A DNA stretch of 64,000 bases from Sphaerochaetaceae bacterium (GCA_050950025.1 JBMNGW010000009.1:10145-74144), one strand, 5' to 3'; shown: positions 4,816-62,949, counted from the stretch's first letter. Numbers and translations: made by a program. Notes: a model not told the origin generated them from the sequence alone.

Positions 4816-5032
4816 GGAGTCTTGCAATTGCAACAAAACAGAGGAGTATCTGTTGCATGAGTTTCTATTTGCACCAAATGACCCTCTGAATTGTTGCATT
4901 TTTGACAAAAATCGGATATACGTCCTGCATGAAGATGTTGCGAGGTTCACGTGATTAACCAGTGCGTCCAGCCTTTTGCCGGCTTAAGGTGCCGGCTTGC
5001 CTTTGCGCACATCTTTAACGTGAGCAAAAAGG

Positions 5033-5068
5033 AGCATTCTGCCTCAGTGCGGAGTGCTCTTTTTATTT
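5033..5068 (+). terminator. intrinsic terminator-like hairpin in the purL leader (possible attenuator or expression platform)
   Basis: agcattctg (5033-5041) pairs with cggagtgct (5050-5058) as a 9-bp stem including G-U pairs, with an 8-nt loop. It is followed by CTTTTTATTTTA and ends 22 nt before the purL ATG. Confidence 0.6.
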
Positions 5069-5090
5069 TATCGTCCAAAGGGAGACTCTT

Positions 5091-7400
5091 ATGGAAGGAA
5101 CAACCCGCTTTGACATTCAGTCGATGACTGATCAACAAATCGAACAACTAATGGGGCAGCTTAACGTCGGCCTTTCTGTCTCTGAAGCCAGAGACCTGCA
5201 AAATCGTATTCTTGGTCGCAGTCCCACATTAGCCGAGCTAATTTTGTTCGGTATTGAAGGCTCGGAACACTGTTCGTACAAAAGCAGTCGCCCCTACCTC
5301 AAACTTTTCCCCACCGACGGAGCTGATGTTATCATCGGAGCCAAAGAAGATGCCGGGATTGTCCGCATCTGTTCAGACAACCAAGGCAACGGTTATGGTG
5401 TTGTCGTGAGCCACGAAAGTCACAACCACCCCTCCCAACTTGTCCCTTACGAAGGGGCTGCCACCGGTATTGGGGGAAACATTCGTGATGTCTGTTGTAT
5501 GGGAGGCTCTGTGATTGCCGTCGGCGGTGATTTTCGCTTTGGTAATCTAGATATTCCATACAACCGTTATTTAGCCGACCAAGTCGCAGAAGGAGTTGCT
5601 GGGTATGCTAATCCCACCGGAGTTCCCGTTATTGCAGCTAATGTGCAGTTTGACCCTTCGTATAATGATAACTGCTTGGTAACAGCCGTCACATTGGGCA
5701 TTGTGCGAGAAAAGGAGATTATCCACTCCTATGCTCCATCCAATGCTGATGGGTATGATTTAATTTTAGTGGGCAAGAGCACTGATAACAGCGGTTTTGG
5801 CGGAGCAAGTTTTGCCAGTTTCGATATCTCTTTGGCCGATGAACATGTGAATAAAGGGGCCAACCAAGAACCCAATGCATTTTTGGGACGACTGTTGATG
5901 CGCGCAACTGATGAGCTGGTAGCTCTCCTTAGTGCCAAAGGTTTAATTGATCAAGTTGCCTGCAAAGATTTGGGAGCAGGCGGCATCGCCTGTGCCACGG
6001 TGGAGTTGGCTGAGGGGGGAGGCTACGGAGCTTTTGTTAATGTCGATTTAGTTCACAAAGCCAGCGATGAGCATCCCCCGTATGTAATTCTTTGCTCCGA
6101 AACGCAAGAGCGGTATCTGTGGGCGGCACCTAAGACCATTACCCCGTTGATTCTTGACCATTTCAACTCCACGTTTGCTTTGAGTGAAGTCTCCCATAAA
6201 GCTCAGGCAACTATCATCGGTCATATTACCAACTCGACTAACTATATTGTCGTTTCCGAAGGACAAGTACTCATTGATGCACCGGCAAGTGAAATCACCA
6301 AAGGCTTTTTGTACCACAGACCCTTAGGTGAGCCTCTTGCGCCTCAAGATGATCCAGTTTTGCCGCTTCCAACAGATTTGAAAAGCGTGTGGTTAGCTAT
6401 TTTGAGCCACCCCAATGTAGCTAGCAAAGAGGCTATTTACAACCGCTTTGATCGCCATGTGCAAGGTGATGTCATCCAACCTCTGGAATCTGCACAAGCA
6501 GGCATTATTACCCCCTTTAACAACCAAGAGTTTCCCCAGGAGATTCAGCAGGTGGGAGTAACTCTTAGCTGTAGTCAAAACCCCCGTTTTAACGCTATCG
6601 ATGCCTACCAAGGGGCCTATTTAGCAGTCTTACACTCTTTTGCCAATACGGCTGCCAGCGGAGCACAAGCGATTGCTATCAGCGACTGTCTTTGCTATGG
6701 GAATCCTGAAAATCCTGTTGCAATGCGACAGTTCGCCGACGGGGCTAAAGGGGTGGCCGATGCTGCTACCGATTTGGGTGTTCCGGTAATAGCAGGCAAT
6801 GTTTCGCTGTACAACGAATCTAAAGATTCGGCAATTGTTCCCAGCCCCATGATTGCTATGATTGGCAAATTTGACGATGTGCAAACAGCCTTACCGATGC
6901 AATTGCAGCAAGCTGGATCAACATTGCTCCTCATTGGCCAAATTGCAAACGAGTGCGGAGGAAGCATCTATTGGGACCTCTATGACAAAAGGGGAAGTTC
7001 CCTACCCCAAGCTAATGCTTCAGAGATGAAAAAAGCTGCCGCCGCCATTGCAAAATTGGCCGCAACAAAAAAGATTGCCAGCTGCCGCACCATTGCTGAA
7101 GGGGGCTTAGCTACTGCAGTAAGCCTCATGGCCTTTGGCTCAGAGTTTGGCTGTGCATTGAGCACTCAAGAAACTCTGCGCGATGATCAGTATCTCTTTA
7201 GCGAAAGTTTGGGCTTTATTGTGGAAGTGGAAGCTGAGCATCTGCAAACAGTTCAACAGGTTATAGAGCAAGCTAAGCTGCCGTACACCCATATCGGTAC
7301 AACAACTGCCAAGCAGAGCATTACTTATAAGGATATACATATTGACCTCATTGAAGCTCAAAGCCTCTATAACACCGCTTTGACGACAATGTTGCAGTAG
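5091..7400 (+). CDS. purL: phosphoribosylformylglycinamidine synthase subunit PurL (small PurL type)
   Basis: 769-aa ORF with EHCSYKSS, SHNHPS and duplicated AIRS/AIRS_C-like halves. GGAG RBS at 5081-5084. Confidence 0.93.
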   Translation: MEGTTRFDIQSMTDQQIEQLMGQLNVGLSVSEARDLQNRILGRSPTLAELILFGIEGSEHCSYKSSRPYLKLFPTDGADVIIGAKEDAGIVRICSDNQGNGYGVVVSHESHNHPSQLVPYEGAATGIGGNIRDVCCMGGSVIAVGGDFRFGNLDIPYNRYLADQVAEGVAGYANPTGVPVIAANVQFDPSYNDNCLVTAVTLGIVREKEIIHSYAPSNADGYDLILVGKSTDNSGFGGASFASFDISLADEHVNKGANQEPNAFLGRLLMRATDELVALLSAKGLIDQVACKDLGAGGIACATVELAEGGGYGAFVNVDLVHKASDEHPPYVILCSETQERYLWAAPKTITPLILDHFNSTFALSEVSHKAQATIIGHITNSTNYIVVSEGQVLIDAPASEITKGFLYHRPLGEPLAPQDDPVLPLPTDLKSVWLAILSHPNVASKEAIYNRFDRHVQGDVIQPLESAQAGIITPFNNQEFPQEIQQVGVTLSCSQNPRFNAIDAYQGAYLAVLHSFANTAASGAQAIAISDCLCYGNPENPVAMRQFADGAKGVADAATDLGVPVIAGNVSLYNESKDSAIVPSPMIAMIGKFDDVQTALPMQLQQAGSTLLLIGQIANECGGSIYWDLYDKRGSSLPQANASEMKKAAAAIAKLAATKKIASCRTIAEGGLATAVSLMAFGSEFGCALSTQETLRDDQYLFSESLGFIVEVEAEHLQTVQQVIEQAKLPYTHIGTTTAKQSITYKDIHIDLIEAQSLYNTALTTMLQ

Positions 7401-7410
7401 GAAGGGTCCC

Positions 7411-8475
7411 ATGAAGCAAGAAAAAAGCATCAGTTATAAAGATTCGGGAGTTGATATCACAGAAGGCAATTTGGCTGTAGAGCTGATGAAAGAGGCCGTG
7501 GCTTCCACCTATTCGCCCCGCGTCATCGCTCCTATTGGCAGTTTTGCCTCGATGTATGATATCAGTACCCTAGTCAAAGAGTATAAACATCCTGTGTTGG
7601 TCCAAAGTGTGGACGGAGTGGGCACCAAAGTCACGGTTGCCCGCATGGTTGGCGATTTCTCTACTATCGGAGAGGACCTCTTTTATGCCTGTGCCAACGA
7701 TATAGCGGTCCACGGAGCCAAGCCGTTGACCTTCCTTGATTATATTGCCAATGACGTACTTGATGCTCGTGTGGTCGCTAGCATTGTTAAAGGCATTGCC
7801 AAAGCCTGTGTTGAGTGCTCAACATCGTTAGTCGGTGGCGAAACAGCCGAAATGCCGGGAGTCTACTTAGCAGGTGAGCATGATTTAGTGGGACTGATTA
7901 CCGGCATAGTTGAAAAAGAGGATTTGATTCAAGGCCACAACGTCCAAAAAGGGAACGCTATTATTGGCATCGGATCTAGCGGTTTACACACCAACGGTTT
8001 TTCTTTGGCGCGCAAAATTTTGTTTGAGCACGGTAAACTGACAGTGGATCAACCGCTGTATACAGACCCCAGCCACACAATAGGAGCGGCTCTTTTAAAA
8101 CCGCATGCCAATTATATCAACGGCGTTCAAGAGCTTTTGGCTAAAGGGGCCCCCATTCTTTCAATGGCCCATATTACCGGCGGCGGCTTAGTGGAAAATG
8201 TACCGCGAGTTATTCCTCAAGGATTAAGCGCCCGTTTCTACCCTTCACGATGGAGCGCCCCGCCTATTTTCCAAGCCTTACAGCAGATTGGGAACGTCAA
8301 CTTTAGTGAAATGTACCGAACATTTAATATGGGAATCGGGCTCGTCATTATTGTGGAGCAAAGCGATAAAGAATCTGTTTTAAAGATGGCACAACAGGCC
8401 TTTAATCTTCCTGTGTGGGAAGTTGGCGAAATTGCGCAAGGAGAAAAAACATGGATCGAGGGGGTCACCGTATGA
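7411..8475 (+). CDS. purM: phosphoribosylformylglycinamidine cyclo-ligase (AIR synthetase)
   Basis: 354-aa ORF with SYKDSGVDI, DGVGTK and ITGGG motifs. Confidence 0.93.
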   Translation: MKQEKSISYKDSGVDITEGNLAVELMKEAVASTYSPRVIAPIGSFASMYDISTLVKEYKHPVLVQSVDGVGTKVTVARMVGDFSTIGEDLFYACANDIAVHGAKPLTFLDYIANDVLDARVVASIVKGIAKACVECSTSLVGGETAEMPGVYLAGEHDLVGLITGIVEKEDLIQGHNVQKGNAIIGIGSSGLHTNGFSLARKILFEHGKLTVDQPLYTDPSHTIGAALLKPHANYINGVQELLAKGAPILSMAHITGGGLVENVPRVIPQGLSARFYPSRWSAPPIFQALQQIGNVNFSEMYRTFNMGIGLVIIVEQSDKESVLKMAQQAFNLPVWEVGEIAQGEKTWIEGVTV

Positions 8476-9731
8476 AAGCGCGCTTAGCAGTCATTGAATT
8501 TCCCGGAACAAATGATATCACCACAGTGGTAAAAGCAGCAAAAAAAGCCAATATTGAGGCAGTTGTGTACCGTTGGAATGAAAAAGAGCTCGATTTTTCC
8601 TCCTTTGATGCCTATGTGCTCGCCGGTGGATTTTCATTTCAAGATCGCAGCCGAGGGGGCATCATTGCCGCTTTGGATCCGCTGATGGAAAAGCTCAAAT
8701 CTGAAGATGCTAAAGGCAAGCCCATTTTGGGAATCAACAATGGAGCCCAGATTCTCCTTGAAGCAGGCCTTGTTCCCGGCTTTGATCGCTATGAAGTAGC
8801 CGGCTCTTGCGCCCCTAATTTGCAACTGGTAGACAATACTGTACTCGATGCTAGTTTCTACCATGCCACCGTCTTTGTTAAACCGCTGAACAGCTCCCTG
8901 TTTTTTGAAAATACCGTTATCGAAGGGTATATCGGCACAACCGAAGGACGCTTTGTTTTTGAACCCGAAGTGCTGAAAATGCTCTATGAAAATAAAGTGG
9001 CTATGCTGCAGTACTGCGACTTTGAAGGTACTGTCGCTCAAGAATTTCCCACCAATCCCACTGGATCGATGGACAACCTGGCAGCAATAGGCAACCACAA
9101 AGGCAATGTGTTGGCCTCCATGGTCCAACCAAAACCCCCTGCCCTTTCTCAAATGCTACTGGCCATGGTAACAAACAAGAAGCTAAAGAGCTCCTTTGTA
9201 CCGTTTACGCTGCCTTCCAGAGCACCGAGTAAGAGTATTCGCCAAGCAACCCAAAAAGATGCCGAGCTTATCGTAGGAACAGCCATCACTGACGACACCT
9301 CTTTGAGTGTTGAAAAACGGCTGCACTTAATGGGCATTGCTGTTCGGATACAGCGCTTTATCCACTGGGAAATTGGCAAACAAGAAAACGCCTCTGCCAA
9401 ACAATGGGAAGCTGATGTAGCTACAGCCAAAAAGAGCTTTGAGCTGTATAACCACAACAAAGAGTATCTGCTTCAAACACTTCCCTCCAGCGATCTGGCC
9501 TTTTTAACCCGCTGCTCTGCTACTGAAGATGCATTAGGAAGGAAAACGGCCCAAGTGCTTCAAAAGCACTATGGTATTACGACATTTGCCTCTCTTAGGC
9601 ACAGCGTGTTGTGGCTTTTAACAGTCGATGAAAACGCCACTTTCGATAAAGAGGAAGTGATTGAAAAAGCTCTTGCTACCAATATCTTCAATAACCCAAT
9701 CAGTCACTGGAGAGAACATTATGAGCATTGA
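8472..9731 (+). CDS. purQ: PurQ-like (class I glutamine amidotransferase fold, triad degenerate) fused to two PurS-like repeats
   Basis: The family-typical start MKARLAVIEFPGTND is at ATG 8472 (4-nt overlap with the purM stop); the ORF-track start at 8415 is rejected. The N-terminal ~235 aa align to PurQ but read GINNGAQ instead of GxCNGFQ. The C-terminal ~155 aa (from about 9255) contain two PurS-like units ending NPISHWREHY. Confidence 0.8.
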   Translation: MKARLAVIEFPGTNDITTVVKAAKKANIEAVVYRWNEKELDFSSFDAYVLAGGFSFQDRSRGGIIAALDPLMEKLKSEDAKGKPILGINNGAQILLEAGLVPGFDRYEVAGSCAPNLQLVDNTVLDASFYHATVFVKPLNSSLFFENTVIEGYIGTTEGRFVFEPEVLKMLYENKVAMLQYCDFEGTVAQEFPTNPTGSMDNLAAIGNHKGNVLASMVQPKPPALSQMLLAMVTNKKLKSSFVPFTLPSRAPSKSIRQATQKDAELIVGTAITDDTSLSVEKRLHLMGIAVRIQRFIHWEIGKQENASAKQWEADVATAKKSFELYNHNKEYLLQTLPSSDLAFLTRCSATEDALGRKTAQVLQKHYGITTFASLRHSVLWLLTVDENATFDKEEVIEKALATNIFNNPISHWREHYEH

Positions 9732-10704
9732 CAGAGATTCCTACCGCTCAATTATTCGCAACCATCTTCATCAGGGAGTCAGCCATACCGATTTTGCTTT
9801 ACCGGAGCATTACAGCGGTAAAGTACGCGAGCGCTACCGCCTTGATGAGCAGCGGTTGCTCATTATTACCACCGACCGCCAAAGTGCTTTTGACCGTATT
9901 TTGGCTACTATTCCCTTTAAAGGAGCGGTGTTAAACCTCGTTTCTGCTTGGTGGTTTGAGCACACTTCCCCCATTATTGCCAACCACCTACTGCAAATTC
10001 CCCACCCCCAAATAGCGGTGGTCAAAGAGTGTTCTGTCTTTCCAATTGAATTTGTGGTTCGGGGGTATATTACCGGCACTACCAACACCTCACTGTGGAC
10101 AGTTTATAACAGCGGCCAAAAAGAGTACTGTGGCCATGTGTTACCCGAAGGGTTGGTGAAAAACCAGAGACTTGCTAAACCCCTGCTCACTCCCACCACT
10201 AAAGAAAAGACGCACGATCGTCCCATTTCACCTGCTGAGATTGTACAAGAGGGGTGGATGAGCCAAGCCGATTGGGACGAAGCAGCAGCTAAAGCGCTGG
10301 AACTGTTTGCCTACGGTCAAAAAACAGCTTTGGAACATGGGTTAATCTTAGTCGACACAAAGTATGAATTTGGCAAGGATAAAGAGGGAAATATTATCCT
10401 GATTGATGAAATTCATACTCCCGACTCCTCCCGCTATTGGCTGGCCGACAGCTATGAAAGCCGCTTTGCATCCCAACGGGAACCTGAGTCGATCGACAAA
10501 GAGTTCCTCCGTCTTTGGTTTGCCCAAAACAGCGATCCTTACCATGATAAAGAGTTGCCTGTGGCTCCTGAAGAGTTGGTAGTTGAACTGTCGCTGCGGT
10601 ACATCATTTTGTATGAGATGATAACCGGCAAACCATTTCCTTTCCCCAGCGGCAGCTCAATTGAGCAGGCCGTATCAGATATTATAAAGGAGGCATCAAA
10701 GTGA
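9721..10704 (+). CDS. purC: phosphoribosylaminoimidazole-succinocarboxamide synthase (long form)
   Basis: ATG 9721 (MSIDRDSYRS...) is chosen over the 9661 track start. SAICAR synthetase motifs YSGKVRERY, TDRQSAFD and LVDTKYEFG are present. Confidence 0.9.
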   Translation: MSIDRDSYRSIIRNHLHQGVSHTDFALPEHYSGKVRERYRLDEQRLLIITTDRQSAFDRILATIPFKGAVLNLVSAWWFEHTSPIIANHLLQIPHPQIAVVKECSVFPIEFVVRGYITGTTNTSLWTVYNSGQKEYCGHVLPEGLVKNQRLAKPLLTPTTKEKTHDRPISPAEIVQEGWMSQADWDEAAAKALELFAYGQKTALEHGLILVDTKYEFGKDKEGNIILIDEIHTPDSSRYWLADSYESRFASQREPESIDKEFLRLWFAQNSDPYHDKELPVAPEELVVELSLRYIILYEMITGKPFPFPSGSSIEQAVSDIIKEASK

Positions 10705-11099
10705 ACAGTGAAGTCATTATAATTATGGGTTCTGAAGCAGATCGTCCTTTTGTCGCTTCTATCACTGCCGAACTAACACTCCTGGGCATCTCATATAAAG
10801 AGTATGTCGCTTCGGCTCATAAACAGCCGCTAAAGGTGTTGCAGATTCTTCAGGAACACGAAAAACAGTCTCGGCTTGTTTACATAACGGTTGCCGGTCG
10901 TTCCAACGCTCTTTCGGGCTTTGTGGCAGCCAATTCAATTGCTCCGGTTCTGGCCGTCCCCCCGTTTGCCGATAAGCTCGATATGCTGGTTAATATCCAT
11001 TCAACACTGCAAATGCCTTCCAATGTACCGGTAATGACAGTCCTTGATCCGCGCAATGCTGCTTTGGCTGTCCAAAGAATTTTGGGAGTTGCCCAATGA
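10701..11099 (+). CDS. purE: AIR carboxylase, class II PurE-like
   Basis: GTG start with AAGGAGG RBS at 10687-10693. IIIMGSEAD N-terminus. Contains SAHK (class II signature) rather than the class I SAHR. No purK in the operon. Confidence 0.85.
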   Translation: MNSEVIIIMGSEADRPFVASITAELTLLGISYKEYVASAHKQPLKVLQILQEHEKQSRLVYITVAGRSNALSGFVAANSIAPVLAVPPFADKLDMLVNIHSTLQMPSNVPVMTVLDPRNAALAVQRILGVAQ

Positions 11100-12520
11100 G
11101 CGGAATTGTTGGCATCATTGGTTCTTCTGAGGTTGCCACTCAGCTCTACGACAGTCTTATCCAATTGCAACACCGCGGCCAAGATGCAGCTGGTATCACC
11201 ACCTGCGATCAGCGGTTCCACTTTAAAACCGGTTTGGGGTTTGTCCGCGATATCTTTTTAGAACGGCACATCAAGCGGCTTAGCGGAACGATGGGAATAG
11301 GCCATACCCGCTACTCCACCAACGGAGATGCAAAAAATAGTGACTCTATTCAACCTTTTTGGAACAGCGCCCCTTTTGGCATCTCATTTGCTCACAGCGG
11401 GGCTATTGTCAATGTCAAAACCCTTACTGAGATGGTCATTAACCAACGGCGCCGTTACTTAAACACCTCTACTTGTAGCGAAGTATTAATGCAATTATTT
11501 TCCTCTTCGCTTGAAACAGGGCTTATTACGGATGCCAAGCGCCCCTTTTTTGATATCGTAACAGAATCGGTTGCTGAATTGATGCAATTGGCCCAAGGTT
11601 CTTACTCTGTTATCTCCATCATCAAAGACAAAGGGCTGGTAGCCTTCCGTGATCCTCATGGTATTACCCCTTTGGTGTTAGGAGAGCGCCAAGGTCCGGA
11701 TGGGACAAGCGAATATATTGTCTCTAGTGAAAACACGATGTTTTACATGCTTGGCTATACCCTGCTGCGCGATATTCACCCCTCCGAAGTCGTCTTTATT
11801 GAACCCGATGGCACACTGCATTCGACCATCATAGGCAAAAAAGAATTTAATCCCTGCATTTTTGAATATGTGTATTACTCGCGCCCCGATGCGATGGAGA
11901 ATTCTATCAGTGTTTATCGCAGCCGCCTGCGAATGGGAGAGAACCTAGGCAAAAGATGGAAACAACAGTACGGCGATTTACGCCCTGATGTTATCATTCC
12001 TGCCCCGGCTACGGCCAACACTATGGCCTTGGCAATGGCAAAAGAGTTACAGACCAACTACTCAGACGGATTGTACAAAAATCCTTTTATCGGGCGCACT
12101 TTTCTAATGCCCGATCAACAACAGCGCAGTCAATCGGTACGCTACAAACTAGTTCCTCAGCAACTGGAAATTCGCAACAAAACGGTCATGATAGTCGATG
12201 ATAGCATTGTACGGGGAACCACCAGTCGTGAAATTGTCAGTATGGTTCGCAACTTTGGTGCTAAAGGGGTCTATTTTGTCAGTGCTTGCCCTCCGGTGAT
12301 ACAACCTTGTTTCTACGGAATCGACATCCCTTCAAAAGAAACTCTTATTGCAGCCAATAACACCGTTGAACAGATACGCAACTACCTTCAAGCCGACATC
12401 CTCTTTTTCCAAGACTTAGAGGATTTAATAGAAGCAGTTACCCGCAAAGGGGAACACAACATCGACATGCCCTGCCATGCTTGTTTGGGCGGTCCCTACT
12501 GTCAAGGAGGGCCGAAGTGA
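11096..12520 (+). CDS. purF: amidophosphoribosyltransferase, Fe-S type, with a non-canonical Ntn glutaminase site
   Basis: 474-aa ORF collinear with PurF (GHTRYST, PRTase loop MIVDDSIVRGTT, C-terminal CHAC Fe-S ligands). The N-terminus is MSGIVG rather than MCGIVG. Confidence 0.88.
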   Translation: MSGIVGIIGSSEVATQLYDSLIQLQHRGQDAAGITTCDQRFHFKTGLGFVRDIFLERHIKRLSGTMGIGHTRYSTNGDAKNSDSIQPFWNSAPFGISFAHSGAIVNVKTLTEMVINQRRRYLNTSTCSEVLMQLFSSSLETGLITDAKRPFFDIVTESVAELMQLAQGSYSVISIIKDKGLVAFRDPHGITPLVLGERQGPDGTSEYIVSSENTMFYMLGYTLLRDIHPSEVVFIEPDGTLHSTIIGKKEFNPCIFEYVYYSRPDAMENSISVYRSRLRMGENLGKRWKQQYGDLRPDVIIPAPATANTMALAMAKELQTNYSDGLYKNPFIGRTFLMPDQQQRSQSVRYKLVPQQLEIRNKTVMIVDDSIVRGTTSREIVSMVRNFGAKGVYFVSACPPVIQPCFYGIDIPSKETLIAANNTVEQIRNYLQADILFFQDLEDLIEAVTRKGEHNIDMPCHACLGGPYCQGGPK

Positions 12521-14439
12521 AACATCTGCTAGTACTTGGCAGCGGAGCCAGAGAACACGCTATTATTACTCAATTGGCCTATTCAAATACGCTGAGAGCT
12601 GAGCATACAGCCCTGCATGGACTGGGAACCACTAACAACCCCGGCATCAGTGCCATCTGCCAAGATTCGGGGGGAACTTATGCTATTGGTCCCATTACCG
12701 ACAGCTCTTTTGTAGTTAAGCATTGTCTGAAACTCAACATCTATTTGCTGATTATTGGCCCGGAGGCCCCTTTGGAAGCAGGAGTAGCCGATGCGGCTAG
12801 GAAAGCTGGCATATTGGTTATGGGACCGGGGAAAGCTGGGGCACGCTTAGAAAGTAGTAAATCTTTTACCCGGGAGTTTCTTAATACCCATCTTCCTTTC
12901 TCTTCGCCCACCTATTACACCATCAGAACGATGGAGCAAGCCAAAGAGGCTCTTAGGTCATTAGCCGAATCGTATGTGGTAAAAGCTGATGGCTTAGCAG
13001 GGGGTAAAGGGGTACTGATTTGGGGAGAGCACTTATTTAGTGATCAAGAAGCATTGGCCCAATGTGCAACTTTTTTGAGCAAAAACGGGCAGTGCGTCAT
13101 TGAACAAAAACTTACCGGCCAAGAATTCTCCCTTTTAACGCTTACCGATGGTACCACCGCTGTCCATTTACCTGCTTTACAGGACCATAAACGGGCCTTT
13201 GACAATGATGAAGGGCCCAATACGGGGGGAATGGGCAGTTACACCGACAAAGACGGTACGCTCCCTTTTCTTACTGCGTATGAGGAGCAAGTGGCTAAAG
13301 CCTATAACGAAGCCGTTATTAAAGCGATGGACTTTCCTTTTAACGGGGTTCTGTACGGAGGGTACATGGCAACAGCCGAAGGGGTGAAAATTATCGAATT
13401 CAACACCCGCTTTGGCGATCCCGAGGCTTTGAATTTGATGCCGCTTCTTAAAAGTGACGGCATTGAACTTTTCGAAAGGGTAGCTAACGGCACCCTTGCC
13501 GATTATCACCTGCAGATGGACAGTCGCCCCTCATTAGCTTTATACATCGTCCCCCAAGCTTACCCCACTTCTTCTACTGTGGGCGATGAGCTAAGCTTGG
13601 CTCCAAATGAGAAAGAGGTGAGCCTTTACTACGGCTCAGTTGATGAAAAAGAGGGCAAACTCTTTAGTGCCGGCTCGCGCAGTGTGGCGTATGTTGCAAT
13701 TGCCGACACTTTGCAACAGTGTCGCCTCTTGTTGGAAAAACCCCTTTCTCAAGTCAAAGGGAATTTTCGCTGGCGCACCGATATTGGTTCAAAAGAGGTG
13801 TTGCGTCAAAAAATAGAGCATATGCACGTATTACGAAAACCGCTGAGAATAGCTGTTTTAGGTTCTACCAACGGCACTGACATGGACTATATTGTCCAAG
13901 AGATTGCCAAAGGGACAGTCCCTGCAGAAATTGCCGTGGTGATTTCCAATGTGTGTGAGGCTGGTATTTTACAAAAAGCCAAAGCGTATGGGATTGCCCA
14001 CTTTTGCGTCGACCAAAAAGGGAAAGAGCGCGATGCTATAATCTCGGCTCTGTGCAAAGAGCATGCTGTCGATTCAATCCTTTTAATTGGGTATATGCGT
14101 ATTTTAAGTCCCCAATTTTGCCACGACTGGGAAGGTAGAATTATTAATGTTCATCCCTCCTTGCTTCCCGATTTTGCTCAAACAATGGACCAAGACACCC
14201 ATGCTCTGGCACTGAAGCGATATCGGCAAACGGGTAACGATCGCACAGGTTGCACAGTCCATATTGTGACTAGTGAATTGGATAGCGGTCCGATTTTAGT
14301 GCAAAAAGCGCTACGCATTGCTTCTGACGATACTCCTCAATCGCTGAAAAAACGGGTCCAAGTGCTGGAAGGAGAGGCTTTGAGTGAAGCGTTGAAGCGT
14401 GTATATCCTGTTGGCGGTAATTTTAACAAACTGCTTTAA
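12517..14439 (+). CDS. purD: fusion protein: phosphoribosylamine-glycine ligase (PurD) plus phosphoribosylglycinamide formyltransferase (PurN)
   Basis: GTG 12517 overlaps the purF stop (GTGA), with AGGAGG at 12506-12511. The N-terminus VKHLLVLGSGAREHAI and an ATP-grasp core mark PurD. From about 13840, LRIAVLGSTNGTD...INVHPSLLP...TGCTVHIVTSELDSGPIL marks PurN. Confidence 0.88.
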   Translation: MKHLLVLGSGAREHAIITQLAYSNTLRAEHTALHGLGTTNNPGISAICQDSGGTYAIGPITDSSFVVKHCLKLNIYLLIIGPEAPLEAGVADAARKAGILVMGPGKAGARLESSKSFTREFLNTHLPFSSPTYYTIRTMEQAKEALRSLAESYVVKADGLAGGKGVLIWGEHLFSDQEALAQCATFLSKNGQCVIEQKLTGQEFSLLTLTDGTTAVHLPALQDHKRAFDNDEGPNTGGMGSYTDKDGTLPFLTAYEEQVAKAYNEAVIKAMDFPFNGVLYGGYMATAEGVKIIEFNTRFGDPEALNLMPLLKSDGIELFERVANGTLADYHLQMDSRPSLALYIVPQAYPTSSTVGDELSLAPNEKEVSLYYGSVDEKEGKLFSAGSRSVAYVAIADTLQQCRLLLEKPLSQVKGNFRWRTDIGSKEVLRQKIEHMHVLRKPLRIAVLGSTNGTDMDYIVQEIAKGTVPAEIAVVISNVCEAGILQKAKAYGIAHFCVDQKGKERDAIISALCKEHAVDSILLIGYMRILSPQFCHDWEGRIINVHPSLLPDFAQTMDQDTHALALKRYRQTGNDRTGCTVHIVTSELDSGPILVQKALRIASDDTPQSLKKRVQVLEGEALSEALKRVYPVGGNFNKLL

Positions 14440-27130: not shown

Positions 27131-27936
27131 TGTCATCTTTTTTAGACCCCCTACCCCGCGTTATTGCCCATCGGGGCGACAGTCATAATCATCCCGAAAA
27201 TACGGTGCCCGCTTTTATAAGCGCGTTAAAGATGGGGATCGATGTCATTGAAACCGATGTCCATCTGACCAAAGATAACCAGATTGTCATTTGGCACGAT
27301 CCCACTTTGGAACGCAACACCAACGGACACGGAAAAATTGAAGATTATACGCTAGCAGAGCTAAAAACCTTTGATGCCGGGTATATGTTTAGCCCTGATG
27401 GGGGAATTACGTATCCCTATCGGGGCACAGGGGTGGTGATGGCAACACTGCAAGAGGCTTTGGAAGCCTGTCCCACGGTACGTTTCAATGTTGATCTTAA
27501 AACAAAAGATCGGAGAATTGTATCTGAATTTGTCCACGTTGTTACTGCTAAGCAGGCCCGCTTGCGAGTTTTATGTGCCAGCTTTCATAAAAGCAACTTA
27601 GATTTAATTCGAAAAACCGATCCCGACATCCTTACCAGTTTAACAACGATTGAAGTACTTCCCCTGCTCCTTAAGCAAAAAATGGGGCTGTTGGGTTCTG
27701 CTTCCAAGCAGAAAAGGAAAATGATTTTTCAAGTGCCGGTGCGCCAGTGGGGCATTGAAGTCATTACCTCCCGTTTTATCGAGGAGTTTCACCGTTTGGG
27801 GGCAATTATCCAAGTGTGGACTATTAACGAGGAAGAGGAGATGAGACGTCTATTTGCCATGGGAGTCGACAGCATTATGACTGACAACCCCGCTTTGGCT
27901 TTAGAAGTAGCTTCTCAAATGGGCCTTATAAATTAG
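27127..27936 (+). CDS. glycerophosphodiester phosphodiesterase family protein
   Basis: 269-aa ORF with VIAHRGDS, IETDVHLTKD and WTINEE motifs. Confidence 0.85.
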   Translation: MMSSFLDPLPRVIAHRGDSHNHPENTVPAFISALKMGIDVIETDVHLTKDNQIVIWHDPTLERNTNGHGKIEDYTLAELKTFDAGYMFSPDGGITYPYRGTGVVMATLQEALEACPTVRFNVDLKTKDRRIVSEFVHVVTAKQARLRVLCASFHKSNLDLIRKTDPDILTSLTTIEVLPLLLKQKMGLLGSASKQKRKMIFQVPVRQWGIEVITSRFIEEFHRLGAIIQVWTINEEEEMRRLFAMGVDSIMTDNPALALEVASQMGLIN

Positions 27937-28736
27937 TCGGAAGCCTCGGGTGTCCCCGCTTCCACTTTTTTAAAGTACTTGTAGGTACTTACCTTCAGCT
28001 CATTAGCTGCCTCTTCGTCACAGACAACCAGACAGTTGCTGTGGCTTTGCAAAATGCTGCAGGGCCACATCTGAGTCATCGGTCCTTCAATCATCGCCTG
28101 CAATGCCCGAGTCTTGCCATACCCATTTACTAATATGACAATCTGTTGGGCATCCATAATAGTTTTGATGCCAACAGTAACAGCCAGTTCGGGAACTTTA
28201 TTAATATCATCGTTAAAAAAACGGGAGTTTGCCGCTCGGGTATCGATTGTCAGTCTTTTCACCCGCGTTTGCGAATCGAAAGAGGAAAAGGGTTCATTAA
28301 AAGCAATATGACCATCTGATCCGATGCCTCCCAAAAAAAGATCGACTCCGCCAAAAGAGGCAATAGTTTTCTCGTACTCATAACACTCTTGGATAATATC
28401 AGGGGCATTGCCGTTTGGAATATGAATGTTTTCTTTGGGAATGTCGATATGCTTAAAAAAATGCTCTTCCATGAAGCGGTGATAGCTTTGTGGATGGTCT
28501 TCGGCCAAACCGATGTACTCATCCATATTAAATGTCACCACATGCTTAAATGATAAACCATCAGTTTGATGAAGTTTGATTAGATGGCGGTAAATTCCTA
28601 TGGGAGTGGATCCGGTAGGCAAACCAAGAACAAAAGGATCAGAAGAAGTTGGTCGATGGGCCCTGATGGCTCTACCTACATAACGGGCAGCCCATTCACT
28701 CATAGATTCATAGTCGTTTTCAATGATTAATCGCAT
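27933..28736 (-). CDS. nagB: glucosamine-6-phosphate deaminase
   Basis: 267-aa ORF with LGLPTGSTP, FNMDEY and GIGSDGHIAFNEP. Confidence 0.93.
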   Translation of the reverse strand: MRLIIENDYESMSEWAARYVGRAIRAHRPTSSDPFVLGLPTGSTPIGIYRHLIKLHQTDGLSFKHVVTFNMDEYIGLAEDHPQSYHRFMEEHFFKHIDIPKENIHIPNGNAPDIIQECYEYEKTIASFGGVDLFLGGIGSDGHIAFNEPFSSFDSQTRVKRLTIDTRAANSRFFNDDINKVPELAVTVGIKTIMDAQQIVILVNGYGKTRALQAMIEGPMTQMWPCSILQSHSNCLVVCDEEAANELKVSTYKYFKKVEAGTPEASD

Positions 28737-28939: not shown

Positions 28940-31660
28940 ATGATACGATACCCCATTATGGGTCAACGGGTACAATACGATAAACAGACAGTGGCAGTTC
29001 TCCTTTGGGATAAAGAGAGCAGAGCTTGGATTGATCAAAGCTCATCGATTACCGCAATTTACACCGCCTACAGATATAAAAAACATACCGGCTATACTGT
29101 CTATTTTCGGGGATCACAACGCTCTTACTTCTTTAAAAAAGAGAATGTCCGCTTTAAGAAAAAACGGAAAGCTCTTCAAGAACCCATTAGAGAAAAGGAA
29201 GCACCCCCTGTAGCAAAAGATGAAGTAGTACGAACTTTGGAACAGCTTAAGAAAAAACTCAATGCCAACAATTCTTTAAAGAAAGCAGAAACGCATTCTC
29301 CAAAACAGATTCATCAGTTCATTACCTACTACCAGAATCTTGCTGCCTATGCTCAGACCATTGCCGATGAGCAGAGTCCTCTTTTTATTCTTGCCCGCAG
29401 TTATCAACGGATGAATTTTTCTGTTCATTCAGTGTTAAACGATCTTTTTCGCAGCATATCAAGAAAATACCCGTTAGATGAAACGCCAATTATAGCACCC
29501 TTTATTTTTAACCAAAGCCAATTGAAAGCTATTGAACAAGCCCTTTGTTCCTCTATCTCTGTTATCGAAGGGCCCCCAGGAACAGGGAAAACGCAAACAA
29601 TTTTAAATCTTGTTGTTAACCTATTTATACGGGGAAAAAGCTGTGCCGTTGTTTCAAATAACAATACAGCCATTGATAACGTACAACAAAAATTCCAAGA
29701 AACTGAGTTTGAGTTCCTGCTGGCCCGCTTGGGTAACCAAGCATATGTAGAGACTTTTTTTGCCAGTCAAAGCAATGAAACATTAGAGAATCTTTTGCAA
29801 AATGCGTATCAGTACACCCCTTCATTTAACGAAATTGCTGCCCTTCATCACACAATGAAGGAAATTCAACAAGCAGAAGTGAAGCGTTCTCAATTGGAAG
29901 AGACTCGCCGCTGTTTAGAACTTGAATTGAAGCACCATAATGAGAAATGGGACAAAACACACCTTGTGCGACCTCACTACCCTTCTAAGACCTATATCGA
30001 ACTCCTTGTTCGTCTCCAAGAGCCGCGAAAAATAAGGTTTTTTGAGCGCAGGCGACTGGATCGAAAATTTGGCATCAATCTAAGACGCCAAGATCATAAC
30101 CAGCTTCTTGATGAAGCAGAAAACCGTTACTACCAAGCTAAGCTCCAAGAAATCGACCAAGAGCTTGAACAAGGTCAATTTTTTCTGGCCGGTAGTCACC
30201 CCCAAAAGGTAGAAAAGAGACTTCAACACCTCTCAACTCAAACTCTGAAACAAAAACTGATTCAGCACTATCAATCGTTTGAACAAAAACCCTTTACCCA
30301 AGCCACATTCAAACAAGAATTTGCCAGATTTATAAAGCGCTATCCAATCATTTTAAGTACCGCCCAGTCACTGTTGAACAATGTTCCTCATGGCTTTACT
30401 TTCGATTATTTAATTATTGATGAAGCCAGCCAAGGTGATTTATTAAGCAGCATTCTGGCTTTAAACCAAGCAAGAAATGTTGTTGTTATCGGAGACTCCA
30501 AACAACTGCAACAAATTGAGGAAGAGGCACTTTACGCCGAATCACGGCGATTGGCCCAAATCCATGCCATACCGCCCCATTATCGCTATGAAGCCAACTC
30601 AATTTTAACCACCACTAAGAAAGCTATCACTGATGTACCGACAACTCTTTTAAAAGAACACTACCGCTGTCCGCCCGCAATCATTCATTTCTGTAACCAG
30701 ATGTTCTACGATAACCAACTTGTTGCCATGACACATAATCATCAACAACATATTCGCATTATAAAGACTGTTGAAGGCAATCATGCTTACAAAAACCCAT
30801 ATGGTACAGGATTATATAACCAACGAGAAATTGATGAAGTCGGGAAGCTTCTAGAAAACCGAGTGGACCCTGATGTGGGGATTATTGCCCCTTTCCGTTA
30901 TCAAGCCGAATTGCTTAACAATCGCTATAGCTCTGCCACAATTGAGGCCGATACCATTCACCGTTTCCAAGGACGAGAAAAGAAAGAGATTATTCTTTCG
31001 TTCACCGTTAATGATATTGCCCAAGAAGGAAAAGACCGTCTTTCCGATTTTGTTACCAACCATCAACTGCTGAATGTAGCAATTTCACGAGCCAAAAACA
31101 CCATAACTGCCATTGTTTCTCATAAAGTCTACCATTCCAAAAATAATCCTATCAGCGATTTTATCCGCTATGCTGAGTATCACTACGGCTCGGCAGAAGA
31201 GTCGACGGTCACTTCAATTTTTGATCTGTTGCACAGCGATTATTCCAAATCTTATCTTAAAGCCATGCATCGAAAATCCACTCTCTACGCCAGTGAACTA
31301 TGGATGAGAGAGCTTATTACTACATCTCTTACCCATTACCCTAACATTTATGTCTCTATGCACCTGCGTCTTTCAAAACTACTGCGCTCAACAAAAGAAT
31401 TTTCCAAAAAAGAACAAGAATACTTGCTCCATCCTTGGACCCACGTTGATTTTCTCTTTTACAACAAGATTACCAAACAAGCTCTTTTTGTTATTGAAGT
31501 GGATGGAGTAACGTTTCATGAACAAAGGCCCAAACAACGGCGGCAAGATACCCTCAAAGACCGTGCCTTGCGGGCAAACGGCATTCCTGTTCATCGCTTT
31601 AAAACAAACGAATCGGAAGAAGAGAGAAAACTAAAAAACATTCTGGTTGATTATGCCTGA
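28940..31660 (+). CDS. Upf1/DNA2-like SF1 helicase fused to a C-terminal PD-(D/E)xK (Vsr/DUF559/DUF2726-like) endonuclease domain
   Basis: 906-aa ORF. Helicase motifs: Walker A GPPGTGKT, motif II LIIDEASQ, GDSKQL, EHYRC, TIHRFQGRE, LNVAISRAK. C-terminal nuclease-like motifs: HVDFLFY...FVIEVDGVTFHEQ...DRALRANGIPVHRF. The N-terminal ~80 aa and a long coiled-coil insert are unassigned. Confidence 0.8.
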   Translation: MIRYPIMGQRVQYDKQTVAVLLWDKESRAWIDQSSSITAIYTAYRYKKHTGYTVYFRGSQRSYFFKKENVRFKKKRKALQEPIREKEAPPVAKDEVVRTLEQLKKKLNANNSLKKAETHSPKQIHQFITYYQNLAAYAQTIADEQSPLFILARSYQRMNFSVHSVLNDLFRSISRKYPLDETPIIAPFIFNQSQLKAIEQALCSSISVIEGPPGTGKTQTILNLVVNLFIRGKSCAVVSNNNTAIDNVQQKFQETEFEFLLARLGNQAYVETFFASQSNETLENLLQNAYQYTPSFNEIAALHHTMKEIQQAEVKRSQLEETRRCLELELKHHNEKWDKTHLVRPHYPSKTYIELLVRLQEPRKIRFFERRRLDRKFGINLRRQDHNQLLDEAENRYYQAKLQEIDQELEQGQFFLAGSHPQKVEKRLQHLSTQTLKQKLIQHYQSFEQKPFTQATFKQEFARFIKRYPIILSTAQSLLNNVPHGFTFDYLIIDEASQGDLLSSILALNQARNVVVIGDSKQLQQIEEEALYAESRRLAQIHAIPPHYRYEANSILTTTKKAITDVPTTLLKEHYRCPPAIIHFCNQMFYDNQLVAMTHNHQQHIRIIKTVEGNHAYKNPYGTGLYNQREIDEVGKLLENRVDPDVGIIAPFRYQAELLNNRYSSATIEADTIHRFQGREKKEIILSFTVNDIAQEGKDRLSDFVTNHQLLNVAISRAKNTITAIVSHKVYHSKNNPISDFIRYAEYHYGSAEESTVTSIFDLLHSDYSKSYLKAMHRKSTLYASELWMRELITTSLTHYPNIYVSMHLRLSKLLRSTKEFSKKEQEYLLHPWTHVDFLFYNKITKQALFVIEVDGVTFHEQRPKQRRQDTLKDRALRANGIPVHRFKTNESEEERKLKNILVDYA

Positions 31661-50593: not shown

Positions 50594-52378
50594 TTATTTT
50601 TCCAACACTGCTCTGATTCTGCGCACTCCGGCAGAGGAAGATTGCTCTTTTTTGATGACAAAACGGCCCATCGATCCGGTGCTATTTACATGCGGTCCTC
50701 CGCAAACTTCTTTGGAGAAATCGCCGACGCTGTAGACTTTCACTTTCTCATCATACTTACCGTCAAACAGGGCAATCGCATGGGCATTGCGAGCTTGCTC
50801 TAAGGTCATGGTTTCAAAAGAGACGGGCAAATCTTGGTCAATGACATCGTTGACAATTTGCTGAACTTGTTGAATCTCTTCTTTGGTCATTGGTTTGTCG
50901 TGGGTAAAATCAAAACGCAATCTTTCGGTAGTAATGTTTGATCCTTTTTGGGCCACATGGTCACCAAGAACCATAATCAAAGCTTTATGCAAAAGGTGTG
51001 TTGCTGTATGCAAAGCCGTGGTCAGCTCGCTATGATCGGCCAGTCCCCCTTTGAACTGTTGTTCGCTTCCTGCTCGTGAAAGTTCTTGATGCTTTTCATA
51101 CGCAGCTTGAAACCCCTCTAAATCGACGGAAAACCCGTTCTCAGCTGCCAGCTCTTGTGTCAGCTCAATGGGAAAGCCATAGGTGTCGTAGAGTTTGAAA
51201 GCAAGGCGTCCGCTAATGATGCGGCTATTTCCTTTGAGGAGGTTAGGCAACATTTTGGCAAATTCATGCTCCCCTTTTTGTAAGGTATTGGAGAATTTTT
51301 GCTCTTCAAGTTCCAATTCACTGAGGATAAAATCACGATTTTCTGCCAGCTCAGGATAACTGCCTTGGTACATATCAATGACAATCTGGGCCAATGTTCC
51401 AAGAAACTCTCCTTCAATGTGGAGTTTTTTACCGTGGCGAATGGCCCGTCGAATCAGGCGTCGGAGAATATACCCTTGACCAACATTGGAAGGCTTAACC
51501 CCTTTTTGATCTCCTAGGATAAAAACACTGGTACGCGCATGATCGGCAATAATGCGTACCGACACATCAGTTGTTTCATCTTCTGTATAGGTAATAGAAC
51601 TGAGCTCTTCAATTTTCTTAATCAGCGGAATGAAGACTTCTGTCTCATAGACACTCTTTTTTCCCTGTAAAACAGCAATGGTCCGCTCAATACCCATGCC
51701 GGTATCAACGCACTTGCGCTCCATTGGCACGTAGGTATGTTCATGGGTCTTGCGGTATTGCATAAATACATCGTTCCAAATTTCAAAGTACTTACCGCAC
51801 GAGCAGCCGGGGCGACACTGATCAGAGCAAGCGGGTCTGCCTGTGTCGATGAACATCTCTGTATCAGGGCCACAGGGTCCGACTTCTCCTGCAGGTCCCC
51901 ACCAGTTATCTTCACGCGGCAAAAAGTAAATCCGTTCTTGAGGAATTCCTTTATCCAACCAATGTTGAGCCGATTCTTCATCTCGGGGAACTTCATCATC
52001 ACCTTCAAAAACCGTCACAGAGAGTTTATCTTTATCGATGTTCAAATGTTTGGTGAGAAATTCATAACTATAATCAATGGCCTCTTTTTTAAAATAATCG
52101 CCTAACGACCAGTTACCGAGCATTTCAAAAAAAGTGAGGTGATGCGGATCTCCCACCGCTTCAATGTCACCGGTGCGAATGCATTTTTGGTAATTGACCA
52201 AGCGGTTGCCTGCCGGATGCTCTTGACCAAGGATGTAGGGAACCAACGGATGCATCCCTGCTGTGGTAAAGAGGACCGTGGGGTCATTTTCGGGTATTAA
52301 AGAGGCTCCTGAGATCTGTTTGTGATCTTTGGAGACAAAAAAATCGATAAATTTTTGGCGTAGTTCATCTGCTTTCAT
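50594..52378 (-). CDS. alaS: alanine--tRNA ligase, short form (catalytic, tRNA-binding and editing domains, no C-Ala/DHHA1 domain)
   Basis: 594-aa ORF with FTTAGM, FFEMLGNWS, editing-domain HTATHLLH and CGGPHV. It ends right after the editing domain. Confidence 0.9.
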   Translation of the reverse strand: MKADELRQKFIDFFVSKDHKQISGASLIPENDPTVLFTTAGMHPLVPYILGQEHPAGNRLVNYQKCIRTGDIEAVGDPHHLTFFEMLGNWSLGDYFKKEAIDYSYEFLTKHLNIDKDKLSVTVFEGDDEVPRDEESAQHWLDKGIPQERIYFLPREDNWWGPAGEVGPCGPDTEMFIDTGRPACSDQCRPGCSCGKYFEIWNDVFMQYRKTHEHTYVPMERKCVDTGMGIERTIAVLQGKKSVYETEVFIPLIKKIEELSSITYTEDETTDVSVRIIADHARTSVFILGDQKGVKPSNVGQGYILRRLIRRAIRHGKKLHIEGEFLGTLAQIVIDMYQGSYPELAENRDFILSELELEEQKFSNTLQKGEHEFAKMLPNLLKGNSRIISGRLAFKLYDTYGFPIELTQELAAENGFSVDLEGFQAAYEKHQELSRAGSEQQFKGGLADHSELTTALHTATHLLHKALIMVLGDHVAQKGSNITTERLRFDFTHDKPMTKEEIQQVQQIVNDVIDQDLPVSFETMTLEQARNAHAIALFDGKYDEKVKVYSVGDFSKEVCGGPHVNSTGSMGRFVIKKEQSSSAGVRRIRAVLEK

Positions 52379-54355: not shown

Positions 54356-54675
54356 GTGAGACCTTTTAGCGTCACTGCTCCAATCGTATCTTTACACGCA
54401 ACCAGTAATAGTCCCATACGATCTTTGGCATCAAGTTTCCAATTCTTTAAGAATATTTCTAAAAGCCACCCTTCGGGGATCAGTCCATCAAAAAATGGAA
54501 ACATAGTAGTACTCAAATACGATCGGTCAGTTAATGGGAGTGTTAAACTCACACTAGTAGCATCATTACGCCTTAAATACTCTGGATCATAGGTGAAGGT
54601 ATACCCTTGATCTGTCTCTTTTAGGATTCCGGCAGGAATGTTGTGTATATACACTTGGGCTGTCCGATATGCCAT
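54352..54675 (-). CDS. hipS: HipS-type protein (stand-alone HipA N-terminal subdomain)
   Basis: 107-aa ORF with VYIHNIPAGILKE...YTFTYD...SLTLPL...FFDGLIPEGW, a HipA N-subdomain pattern. ATGA overlap with hipT. Confidence 0.78.
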   Translation of the reverse strand: MAYRTAQVYIHNIPAGILKETDQGYTFTYDPEYLRRNDATSVSLTLPLTDRSYLSTTMFPFFDGLIPEGWLLEIFLKNWKLDAKDRMGLLLVACKDTIGAVTLKGLT

Positions 54676-62773: not shown

Positions 62774-62949
62774 GCGAACCTCCAAAAGCCTCTGTATTGG
62801 TGAATAAGAAAGAAATTCCCTTTTACACCCTTCGGCCATTGTACCACAGTCTTACATTTTGAGCAATTGTCGAGACCTTTTCTTGAGGGTACCTACGCCT
62901 TTCCCTCTGTTGCTTTGTAGGATATCATGCACATAAGAGGAGACAAAAC

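Follow-up and report, generated by a model that had tools for sequence, protein, structure and literature searches.

Degenerate glutaminase sites in PurF and PurQ of a Sphaerochaetaceae purine operon suggest purine synthesis from free ammonia

Glutamine amidotransferases are the textbook case of obligate coupling, in which a glutaminase passes ammonia to a synthase through a tunnel. A purine operon from an uncultured member of the Sphaerochaetaceae (Spirochaetota) raises the question of which nitrogen donor feeds de novo purine synthesis when the glutaminase sites that would release ammonia from glutamine have degenerated. The operon lies in a 64 kb stretch of DNA (hereafter the window), which we assigned to this family from exact-protein look-ups and the names of homologues. 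It comprised seven genes on the plus strand (window 5091-14439), in the order purL-purM-purQ/purSx2-purC-purE-purF-purD/purN, that abutted or overlapped each other in a pattern typical of a single transcription unit. Gene content and boundaries agreed with an initial annotation of the same DNA and were matched by open reading frame (ORF) and family calls. Both PurF and the PurQ part of the PurL-PurQ-PurS system carried degenerate glutaminase sites, and the synthase and transferase parts of the operon were conserved. The reading that we develop here is that the organism supplies both steps with free ammonia.

PurF from the window aligned end to end with Escherichia coli PurF (PDB 1ecb and 8w7d; E 3e-121), and its closest non-self homologue was 74% identical. 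Near-invariant columns (122) were defined from 117 canonical sequences within an alignment of the 120 best database homologues, using E. coli numbering. The N-terminus read MSGIVG where E. coli has MCGIVG, placing a serine at the position of Cys1 (codon AGC, 11099-11101), and two other positions of the glutamine site had changed, Asn101 to Ser (11396-11398) and Asp127 to Cys (11474-11476). Altogether, changes affected seven of the 55 near-invariant columns of the N-terminal nucleophile (Ntn) domain (C1S, P75S, N101S, N103A, D127C, R188T and G227S), compared to 0.08 on average and two at most in the 117 canonical controls, which bears out the degeneracy of this glutaminase site proposed in the initial annotation. 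In the phosphoribosyltransferase (PRTase) domain only two of 67 near-invariant columns were changed, both conservatively (F259Y and I335L), and the phosphoribosyl pyrophosphate (PRPP) motif VDDSIVRGTTS was present. Arg26, Gly27, Arg73, Tyr74 and Gly102 were retained, as were the four near-invariant cysteines C252, C403, C457 and C460, which by analogy with the Bacillus subtilis enzyme probably bind a 4Fe-4S cluster. No alternative start codon can restore the cysteine, and the choice of start is irrelevant because the homologous position is itself a serine. In E. coli PurF, Cys1 is reported to be the nucleophile, Asn101 and Gly102 to form the oxyanion hole, and Arg73, Thr76 and Asp127 to hold the alpha-carboxylate and alpha-amino groups of glutamine (Kim et al. 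1996; Krahn et al. 1997). Invariance in 117 sequences independently supports the importance of these positions. Glutamine-dependent synthesis of phosphoribosylamine (PRA) by the window PurF is predicted to be lost.

PurQ, encoded between purM and purC, had lost its entire Cys-His-Glu triad. The nucleophile elbow read GINNGAQ in place of the canonical GICNGAQ (C89N, 8736-8738), and the His/Glu motif read MVQPK in place of MPHPE (H219Q, 9126-9128; E221K, 9132-9134). A further 15 near-invariant changes brought the count to 18 of 57 columns of the glutamine amidotransferase (GATase) domain, whereas canonical PurQ controls had a mean of 0.17 and a maximum of two; the site is degenerate, as had been suspected from the first reading of the sequence. 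A stretch of approximately ten residues was also deleted. The triad was present in 120 of 125 aligned PurQ sequences, the exceptions being the window protein (two rows) and a related lineage, L021 (three rows). The protein scored below the curated cut-offs of two PurQ models (TIGR01737, 134 against 177.8; NF002957, 124.5 against 212), and its closest non-self homologue was only 41% identical. An AlphaFold (AF2) model of the whole protein had a predicted local distance difference test (pLDDT) score of 89.8, and its PurQ domain best matched Thermotoga maritima PurQ in the PDB (3d54_D, template modelling (TM) score 0.80), a fold that leans towards the family given that canonical homologues dominated the alignment behind the model.

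The C-terminal part of the same protein had changed at one of 12 near-invariant columns. Neither the PurS model of Pfam nor profile-based searching of the PDB recognised this part, so that structure comparison alone detected what it resembles: with an AF2 model of residues 245-419 (pLDDT 90.9), the top 14 PDB matches in Foldseek were Salmonella large PurL (E 1e-5, TMq ~0.6, ~154 residues), and the model matched the PurS monomers 1vq3, 2cuw and 3d54_B over half of its own length. Judging by the model, the window protein joins PurQ to a tandem PurS-like adaptor, the counterpart of the N-terminal domain in large PurL. Fusions of PurQ and a tandem PurS-like module (~420 aa) were widespread, occurring in Marinimicrobia, Legionellales, Balneolaceae and Sphaerochaetaceae (proteins P0122-P0240). 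The novelty does not lie in this architecture, because canonical relatives have it as well.

Loss was therefore specific to the glutaminase sites, at 7/55 columns against 2/67 in the PRTase domain for PurF, and 18/57 against 1/12 in the PurS-like part for PurQ. The glutaminase nucleophile has gone while the synthase remains under constraint, the same combination that marks the glutaminase relic of carbamoyl phosphate synthetase I (CPS I). The initial annotation had described every synthase and transferase part as looking intact, which stands on NCBIfam scores, PurL motifs and 65 of 67 PRTase positions, with the reservations that PurN was borderline (146 against a cut-off of 150) and PurE fell below its class I cut-off; PurL, PurM, PurC, PurF and PurD all scored above their NCBIfam equivalog cut-offs. 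The features of the operon were as follows.

5091..7400, plus strand: purL, small-type formylglycinamidine ribonucleotide (FGAM) synthase subunit, 769 aa (TIGR01736, 592 against cut-off 526)
7411..8475, plus strand: purM, aminoimidazole ribonucleotide (AIR) synthase (TIGR00878, 353 against cut-off 236)
8472..9731, plus strand: purQ/PurS-like fusion, whole gene, 419 aa (C-terminal domain 175 aa)
8472..9179, plus strand: PurQ-like class I glutaminase domain, triad replaced (TIGR01737, 134 against cut-off 177.8)
9204..9731, plus strand: tandem PurS-like domain, C-terminal part of the PurQ fusion (AF2 model and Foldseek)
9721..10704, plus strand: purC, phosphoribosylaminoimidazole-succinocarboxamide (SAICAR) synthase (NF009251, 412 against cut-off 371)
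10701..11099, plus strand: purE, short form, 132 aa (PF00731, E 1e-35; TIGR01162 (class I), 114 against cut-off 150)
11096..12520, plus strand: purF, whole gene
11096..11800, plus strand: PurF Ntn glutaminase domain, N-terminal, glutamine site degenerate (alignment)
11801..12520, plus strand: PurF PRTase domain, conserved (TIGR01134, 407 against cut-off 350 for the whole protein)
12517..14439, plus strand: purD-purN fusion, glycinamide ribonucleotide (GAR) synthetase and GAR formyltransferase (TIGR00877, 345 against 288; TIGR00639, 146 against 150)

Aligned to PurL of Thermus thermophilus (3viu), the window PurL kept the SEHCSYKSS, ESHNHPS and GAATG motifs. At sites invariant in five relatives, lineage-specific changes were found at 45 of 341 positions (13%), compared to 3-8% in the relatives themselves. 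These clustered at residues 441-469 (window 6411-6497) and 618-686 (6942-7148), including a change of HDISEGG to RTIAEGG, and the N-terminal catalytic half was unchanged. The clusters could reflect co-evolution following the death of PurQ, at the subunit interface, an ammonia gate or an auxiliary nucleotide site. PurE carried an SAHK motif and no purK was found within the operon. Because it is 132 aa long, has this motif, falls below the class I cut-off and lacks an accompanying purK, its sequence suggests a class II AIR carboxylase, presumably comparable to that of Treponema denticola.

Five independent assemblies (the NCBI metagenome-assembled genome (MAG) GCA_964516405.1, two from Logan SRA, one from ENA and one from JGI) reproduced the window sequence free of indels, at identities of 99.87-100%. 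Four distinct single-nucleotide polymorphisms (SNPs) segregated within the species in the operon, all of them synonymous, and no frameshift or stop interrupted any of the seven ORFs in the three lineages from which the whole operon was recovered (the window, L021 and L024). The operon is under purifying selection, because its ORFs are intact in all three lineages and its SNPs are all synonymous. The ratio of nonsynonymous to synonymous rates (dN/dS) was not used, as the lineages were 60-80% identical in protein and their synonymous sites saturated; counts of near-invariant positions against canonical controls took its place.

How, then, did the two sites come to be lost? Among the 120 best PurF matches, Cys1Ser was shared by only three other clusters (P0004, P0005 and P0007), all from Sphaerochaetaceae MAGs, and a scan of metagenomes added a fifth lineage, L031. 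Besides GCA_964516405.1, MAGs with operons of this kind are GCA_964392585.1, GCA_041678405.1 and GCA_964541205.1. All Cys1Ser lineages used an AGY codon for Ser1, and in all five Asn101 was replaced by Ser or Cys. The window retained Arg73 and had Cys in place of Asp127, whereas its sisters carried Arg73Lys and kept Asp127. Across the five lineages, residues differed at positions 101 (S/C), 103 (A/G/R), 76 (T/N/A), 73 (R/K) and 127 (C/D), and also at 78 and 100. Variation of this kind at a former glutamine site looks like a signature of relaxed constraint and not of a new conserved site.

One and the same operon gene order was found in the window, the degenerate lineages L021 and L024, and four canonical relatives, L005 and L006 (HGW-Spirochaetae-2 and -4), L029 and L030; because this order is shared with canonical relatives, the degenerate genes are orthologues in the ancestral slot. 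The window PurF nested inside canonical Sphaerochaetaceae PurFs, with no separate paralogue clade. Neighbour-joining (NJ) trees of PurF alone did not resolve the branching, grouping the window with other Ser1 lineages at bootstraps of 24-62%. An NJ tree of concatenated PurL, PurM, PurC, PurE and PurD/N (2210 columns, leaving out PurF and PurQ) united the window with L021 and L024 at 100% bootstrap, as sister to L005/L006.

Within this clade, PurQ was found in several states: it was fully dead in the window, carried Cys89Ser and Asn90Asp in L021, and had an intact triad in L024 and L031. The inactivations in the window and in L021 are independent, because the closest relatives of L021 have intact PurQ. 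The most parsimonious history suggested by these sequences is a single loss of the PurF glutaminase in the clade ancestor (at least five lineages), followed by at least two losses of PurQ. Of approximately 120 PurQ clusters, only two lacked the nucleophile, and both were in operons with a dead PurF; were the losses independent, the chance of both falling in such operons would be about 0.002, a rough figure that ignores shared ancestry. The initial annotation had proposed a coordinated loss beyond chance. Its second half holds, in that both nucleophile-less PurQs lie in PurF-dead operons, but the losses were sequential instead of coordinated, with PurF first and PurQ later, at least twice. The window species (L003) and the P0005 species (L021) co-occurred in the assembly ERZ27247346, as did the P0005 (L022) and P0007 (L025) species in ERZ27247376. 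Such co-occurrence of Ser1-PurF species suggests a shared niche.

Evidence on the habitat came from a DNA pattern for the Ser1 (AGY) N-terminus of PurF, which matched 11 of 11 degenerate loci and no canonical ones, and is narrow enough that it would miss other Cys-less PurFs. Only four contigs of the JGI metagenome collection matched it, in Ga0265293 and Ga0172382, all from the landfill leachate well LW2. A contig carrying the argB of the window species also came from LW2 (Ga0172382). LW2 leachate contained 1375 mg/L ammonia-N (~98 mM), with ~100 mg/L un-ionised ammonia, and was the richest well of its landfill, where the others held 0-275 mg/L ammonia-N (bioRxiv 10.1101/2021.03.26.437222; PMC9723747, with LW2 values in its Supplementary Table 2). 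Look-ups of sample metadata for ERZ27247346, ERZ27247376, SRR31061295, SRR8449813 and JGI 3300044603 found none. The LW2 origin lends circumstantial ecological support to the reading that these bacteria depend on ammonia.

Taken together, we lean towards an explanation in which PRA and FGAM are both made from ammonia by an orthologous operon whose two glutaminases were abandoned stepwise, with PurQ kept as a relic, in a habitat permitting this at ~100 mM ammonium; we consider it somewhat more probable than not. We infer from the sequences that NH3 is the nitrogen donor in vivo. The glutamine-hydrolysing half-reactions would have been abandoned in this lineage, leaving PurF with an Ntn domain that still folds but no longer catalyses. 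The PRTase domain of the same protein would convert PRPP and free NH3 to PRA, and PurL would form FGAM from formylglycinamide ribonucleotide (FGAR), ATP and free NH3. PurQ would be a decaying relic, possibly serving as a scaffold, and its dead domain may have escaped deletion because a covalent link joins it to the tandem PurS-like module, on which small PurL depends; structural reasons of this sort probably explain why the dead domains are kept. PurF would have been lost first, once, in the clade ancestor, and PurQ later and independently in some descendants. Both losses were most likely permitted by ~100 mM ammonium, at which NH3 would not be limiting and bypassing glutamine, which spares the ATP that glutamine synthetase consumes, would presumably be advantageous or neutral.

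Such use of ammonia has biochemical precedent. Small PurL of B. subtilis on its own reportedly has NH3-dependent activity (Hoskins et al. 2004). In E. coli PurF, replacement of Cys1 by Ala or Ser abolishes glutamine activity and leaves NH3 activity (PMC3261824), and Corynebacterium glutamicum grows on ammonium without HisH, HisF working alone in vivo (PMC3896937).

Several observations weigh against this explanation. Every protein of the operon evolves more quickly in this clade than in its sisters, so part of the divergence is a general rate effect, and with three taxa on longer branches, support for a single origin may be inflated by long-branch attraction. L024 and L031, the two lineages with intact PurQ, evidently still have glutamine at their disposal. 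In model organisms, synthase domains run without their glutaminase only when NH3 and pH are both high. The part of the genome that was inspected comprises the 64 kb window and ~4 kb to its left.

This scope bears on the rival that we take most seriously, although we think it unlikely: a canonical purF, together with a canonical purQ or a large purL, may reside elsewhere and carry out the glutamine-dependent reactions, with the operon copies being auxiliary ammonia-dependent or regulatory proteins, as proposed for the archaeal pair PurF and PurF'. The archaeal Cys1-less PurF' always accompanies a canonical PurF (PMC3261824), which also counts against our explanation. The initial annotation had named canonical copies elsewhere in the genome as one finding that would overturn it; tblastn against the 64 kb window, the extent that this check covered, returned no further copy of either gene, and the genome was absent from the genome collection. 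A scan of GTDB-representative genomes with PurF returned canonical HGW-Spirochaetae-2 and -4 and distant Marinimicrobia, with the window species and its degenerate relatives absent. On the left of the window, reached via argB in search of carA/carB, were short contigs with argD, a patatin-like gene and small ORFs, and no further amidotransferase. A redundant role fits poorly with an ancestral operon slot, canonical gene order, a PurF nested in canonical Sphaerochaetaceae, and strong constraint on the PRTase domain and PurL. As far as we know, bacteria normally carry a single purF.

Alternatively, an amide donor may still be used, with Ser1 serving as an Ntn nucleophile towards glutamine or some other amide, much as in the Ser/Thr Ntn hydrolases, which would make these altered, not dead, amidotransferases. 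Serine was kept in all five lineages with no drift to other residues, Arg26, Gly27, Tyr74 and Gly102 were retained, and the sisters kept Asp127 and changed Arg73 only conservatively to Lys. Yet the E. coli Cys1Ser enzyme has no detectable glutamine activity (PMC3261824). All five lineages have also lost Asn101, the oxyanion-hole residue, Asp127 is Cys in the window, the former glutamine-site positions vary among lineages, and the window PurQ keeps no nucleophile, base or acid; we regard this alternative as improbable. Less probable again is that the pathway is decaying, with purines salvaged and early pseudogenisation that happened to strike the glutaminase sites first. The faster evolution of the clade in every operon protein, the many lineage-specific substitutions in the window PurL and PurQ, and a periplasmic 5'-nucleotidase-like gene in the window would suit such decay, but seven ORFs stayed intact in the window, L021 and L024 despite divergence to 60-80% amino-acid identity, 65 of 67 PRTase positions and the PurL catalytic motifs were kept, and all operon SNPs were synonymous. 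A sequencing, assembly or annotation artefact was ruled out, its probability being negligible, as five independent assemblies agree, related species carry related substitutions, and the serine is homologous to Cys1.

Among known systems, the closest in mechanism to free-ammonia purine synthesis is CPS I, and the closest in family is the hypothesised archaeal PurF'. CPS I of ureotelic vertebrates is ammonia-specific and carries a relic class I glutaminase in which the catalytic Cys is replaced (Ser294 in human CPS1) (PMC4655335). As we propose for the purine operon, its synthetase works on free ammonia beside an inactive glutaminase relic, and further changes have accumulated at its glutamine site and tunnel (PMC4655335). 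PurQ of L021 has the same Cys to Ser replacement, and the window PurQ would represent a more advanced decay. The two cases differ in that CPS I is another enzyme, in another pathway and in a eukaryotic organelle, and concerns one enzyme, not two steps, and that its use of ammonia has been demonstrated biochemically, where ours is deduced from sequence.

Archaeal PurF' proteins (Crenarchaeota; Mlab_0150) have Ser, Ala or Val in place of the N-terminal Cys and were hypothesised to be ammonia-dependent PRPP aminotransferases (Brown et al. 2011; PMC3261824). Like them, the window protein is a PurF homologue that lacks the N-terminal Cys and is encoded among purine genes. Unlike them, it is an operon orthologue nested in canonical bacterial PurFs, whereas PurF' forms a separate paralogue cluster adjoining canonical PurF, and it is paired with a dead PurQ. 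It thus falls outside the definition of PurF' and seems better described as an orthologous bacterial PurF with a lost glutaminase. The E. coli Cys1Ala and Cys1Ser mutants share the substitution seen in the window but are engineered single changes, whereas the natural proteins carry further changes at the glutamine site (N101S, D127C and R73K among them) and have survived speciation. The PurL-PurQ-PurS complex of B. subtilis and T. maritima (3D54), and large PurL, have the same components as the window (small PurL, the PurQ fold and a PurS-like tandem), but here PurQ and two PurS-like repeats are joined in one 419-aa protein from which the triad is absent. In a thaumarchaeal PurQ with His replaced by Asn, the glutaminase is impaired and ammonia is the presumed donor (PMC3261824). 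This protein and C. glutamicum HisF are alike in having a glutaminase half that is impaired or dispensable, with ammonia presumed or shown to serve. Both differ from our operon in being single-residue or single-enzyme cases, with no second amidotransferase of the pathway involved and no defined high-ammonia habitat. Herpesvirus vFGAM-synthase pseudoenzymes are said to derive from PurL/PurQ, to have a non-functional glutaminase and to act in host signalling, outside purine synthesis; unlike these, the window operon retains the synthase partner and the whole pathway.

Our literature search, in a library that was itself incomplete, found no paper on the loss of both purine glutaminase sites in one operon, nor on their stepwise loss in a clade. 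The remark in the initial annotation that no description of the pathway-level trait was known to it therefore survives in part: we found no paper on it, but an ammonia-dependent role had already been proposed in 2011 for the Cys-less archaeal PurF' (PMC3261824). The principle that ammonia can replace glutamine is old, and what appears to be new is a natural, staged and habitat-linked loss.

Upstream of purL, we identified one further element of the operon.

4829..5090, plus strand: putative control region of the operon (repeats, -10-like box, leader hairpin)

TGCAACA/TGTTGCA repeats were found at 4829, 4851 and 4892, the last of them 22-24 nt (22 nt in the window) ahead of a -10-like TATAT-type box at 4914. 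The leader that follows (~165 nt) ended in a 16-pair terminator-like hairpin (5027-5064) and a U-run, immediately ahead of the ribosome-binding site of purL and 27 nt from its ATG. The same layout of repeats and box was found upstream of purL in L005, L021, L024, L029 and L030, and a comparable hairpin and U-run was visible in L005, L021 and L024. Rfam returned no riboswitch match for the leader, whether at the gathering threshold or with E-values relaxed, and RNAalifold on four purL leaders gave no convincing covarying structure. The region may be an operator with an attenuator, or an unclassified riboswitch-like leader.

Two other loci in the window touch on nitrogen metabolism. A nagB gene for glucosamine-6-phosphate deaminase (27933-28736, minus strand; TIGR00502, 396 bits) encodes a reversible reaction that, at high ammonium, could supply glucosamine 6-phosphate (GlcN6P) without the glutamine-dependent GlmS. 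A gene pair at 60432-62839 (minus strand) comprised a gltA-type 'NADPH-dependent glutamate synthase' (TIGR01316, 613 bits) and a subunit resembling sulfide/dihydroorotate dehydrogenase FAD/NAD proteins; we read the pair as an NfnAB-like oxidoreductase and not as a true glutamate synthase (GOGAT), which bears on reconstructions of nitrogen assimilation. Elsewhere, a 906-aa superfamily 1 (SF1) helicase-like protein (28940-31660) had weak matches to the anti-phage helicase families PLuB, ProA and Hhe. The surrounding 28-34 kb interval had the lowest GC content of the window (0.41-0.43 compared to ~0.46) and may be a defence or mobile island. Adjacent overlapping ORFs of 107 aa and 314 aa at 53411-54675 (minus strand) were HipA-like by eye only, and a short alanine-tRNA ligase of 594 aa (50594-52378, minus strand) gave a full-length match to the equivalog model NF002436 (1026 bits).

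To our knowledge, CPS I is essentially the only enzyme whose natural reversion to free ammonia is well documented. In the case described above, two glutamine-using systems with unrelated glutaminase folds (PurF, and PurL-PurQ-PurS) would have reverted in one operon, with intermediates in sister species and a high ammonium concentration measured in the habitat. Sister species would represent PurQ at an early stage (Cys to Ser), at a late stage (triad and pocket eroded) and at one not yet begun. It is conceivable, though we put the chance slightly below even, that a clade living at ~100 mM ammonium has been caught converting a whole pathway from glutamine to free ammonia, losing PurF once and PurQ repeatedly, in stages, with PurL seemingly co-evolving, and further amidotransferases encoded in these genomes may be affected too. 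NCBI names the two proteins as an ordinary amidophosphoribosyltransferase and PurQ, and metabolic reconstructions would therefore wrongly infer dependence on glutamine. If this conversion is real, the clade would provide a natural experiment that connects the chemistry of a habitat with the abandonment of ammonia channelling. It would make testable whether growth in vivo can be sustained by NH3-dependent PurF and PurL, at which ammonium level selection for glutamine use relaxes, and how residues of the synthase, the tunnel and the interface change after the glutaminase has died.

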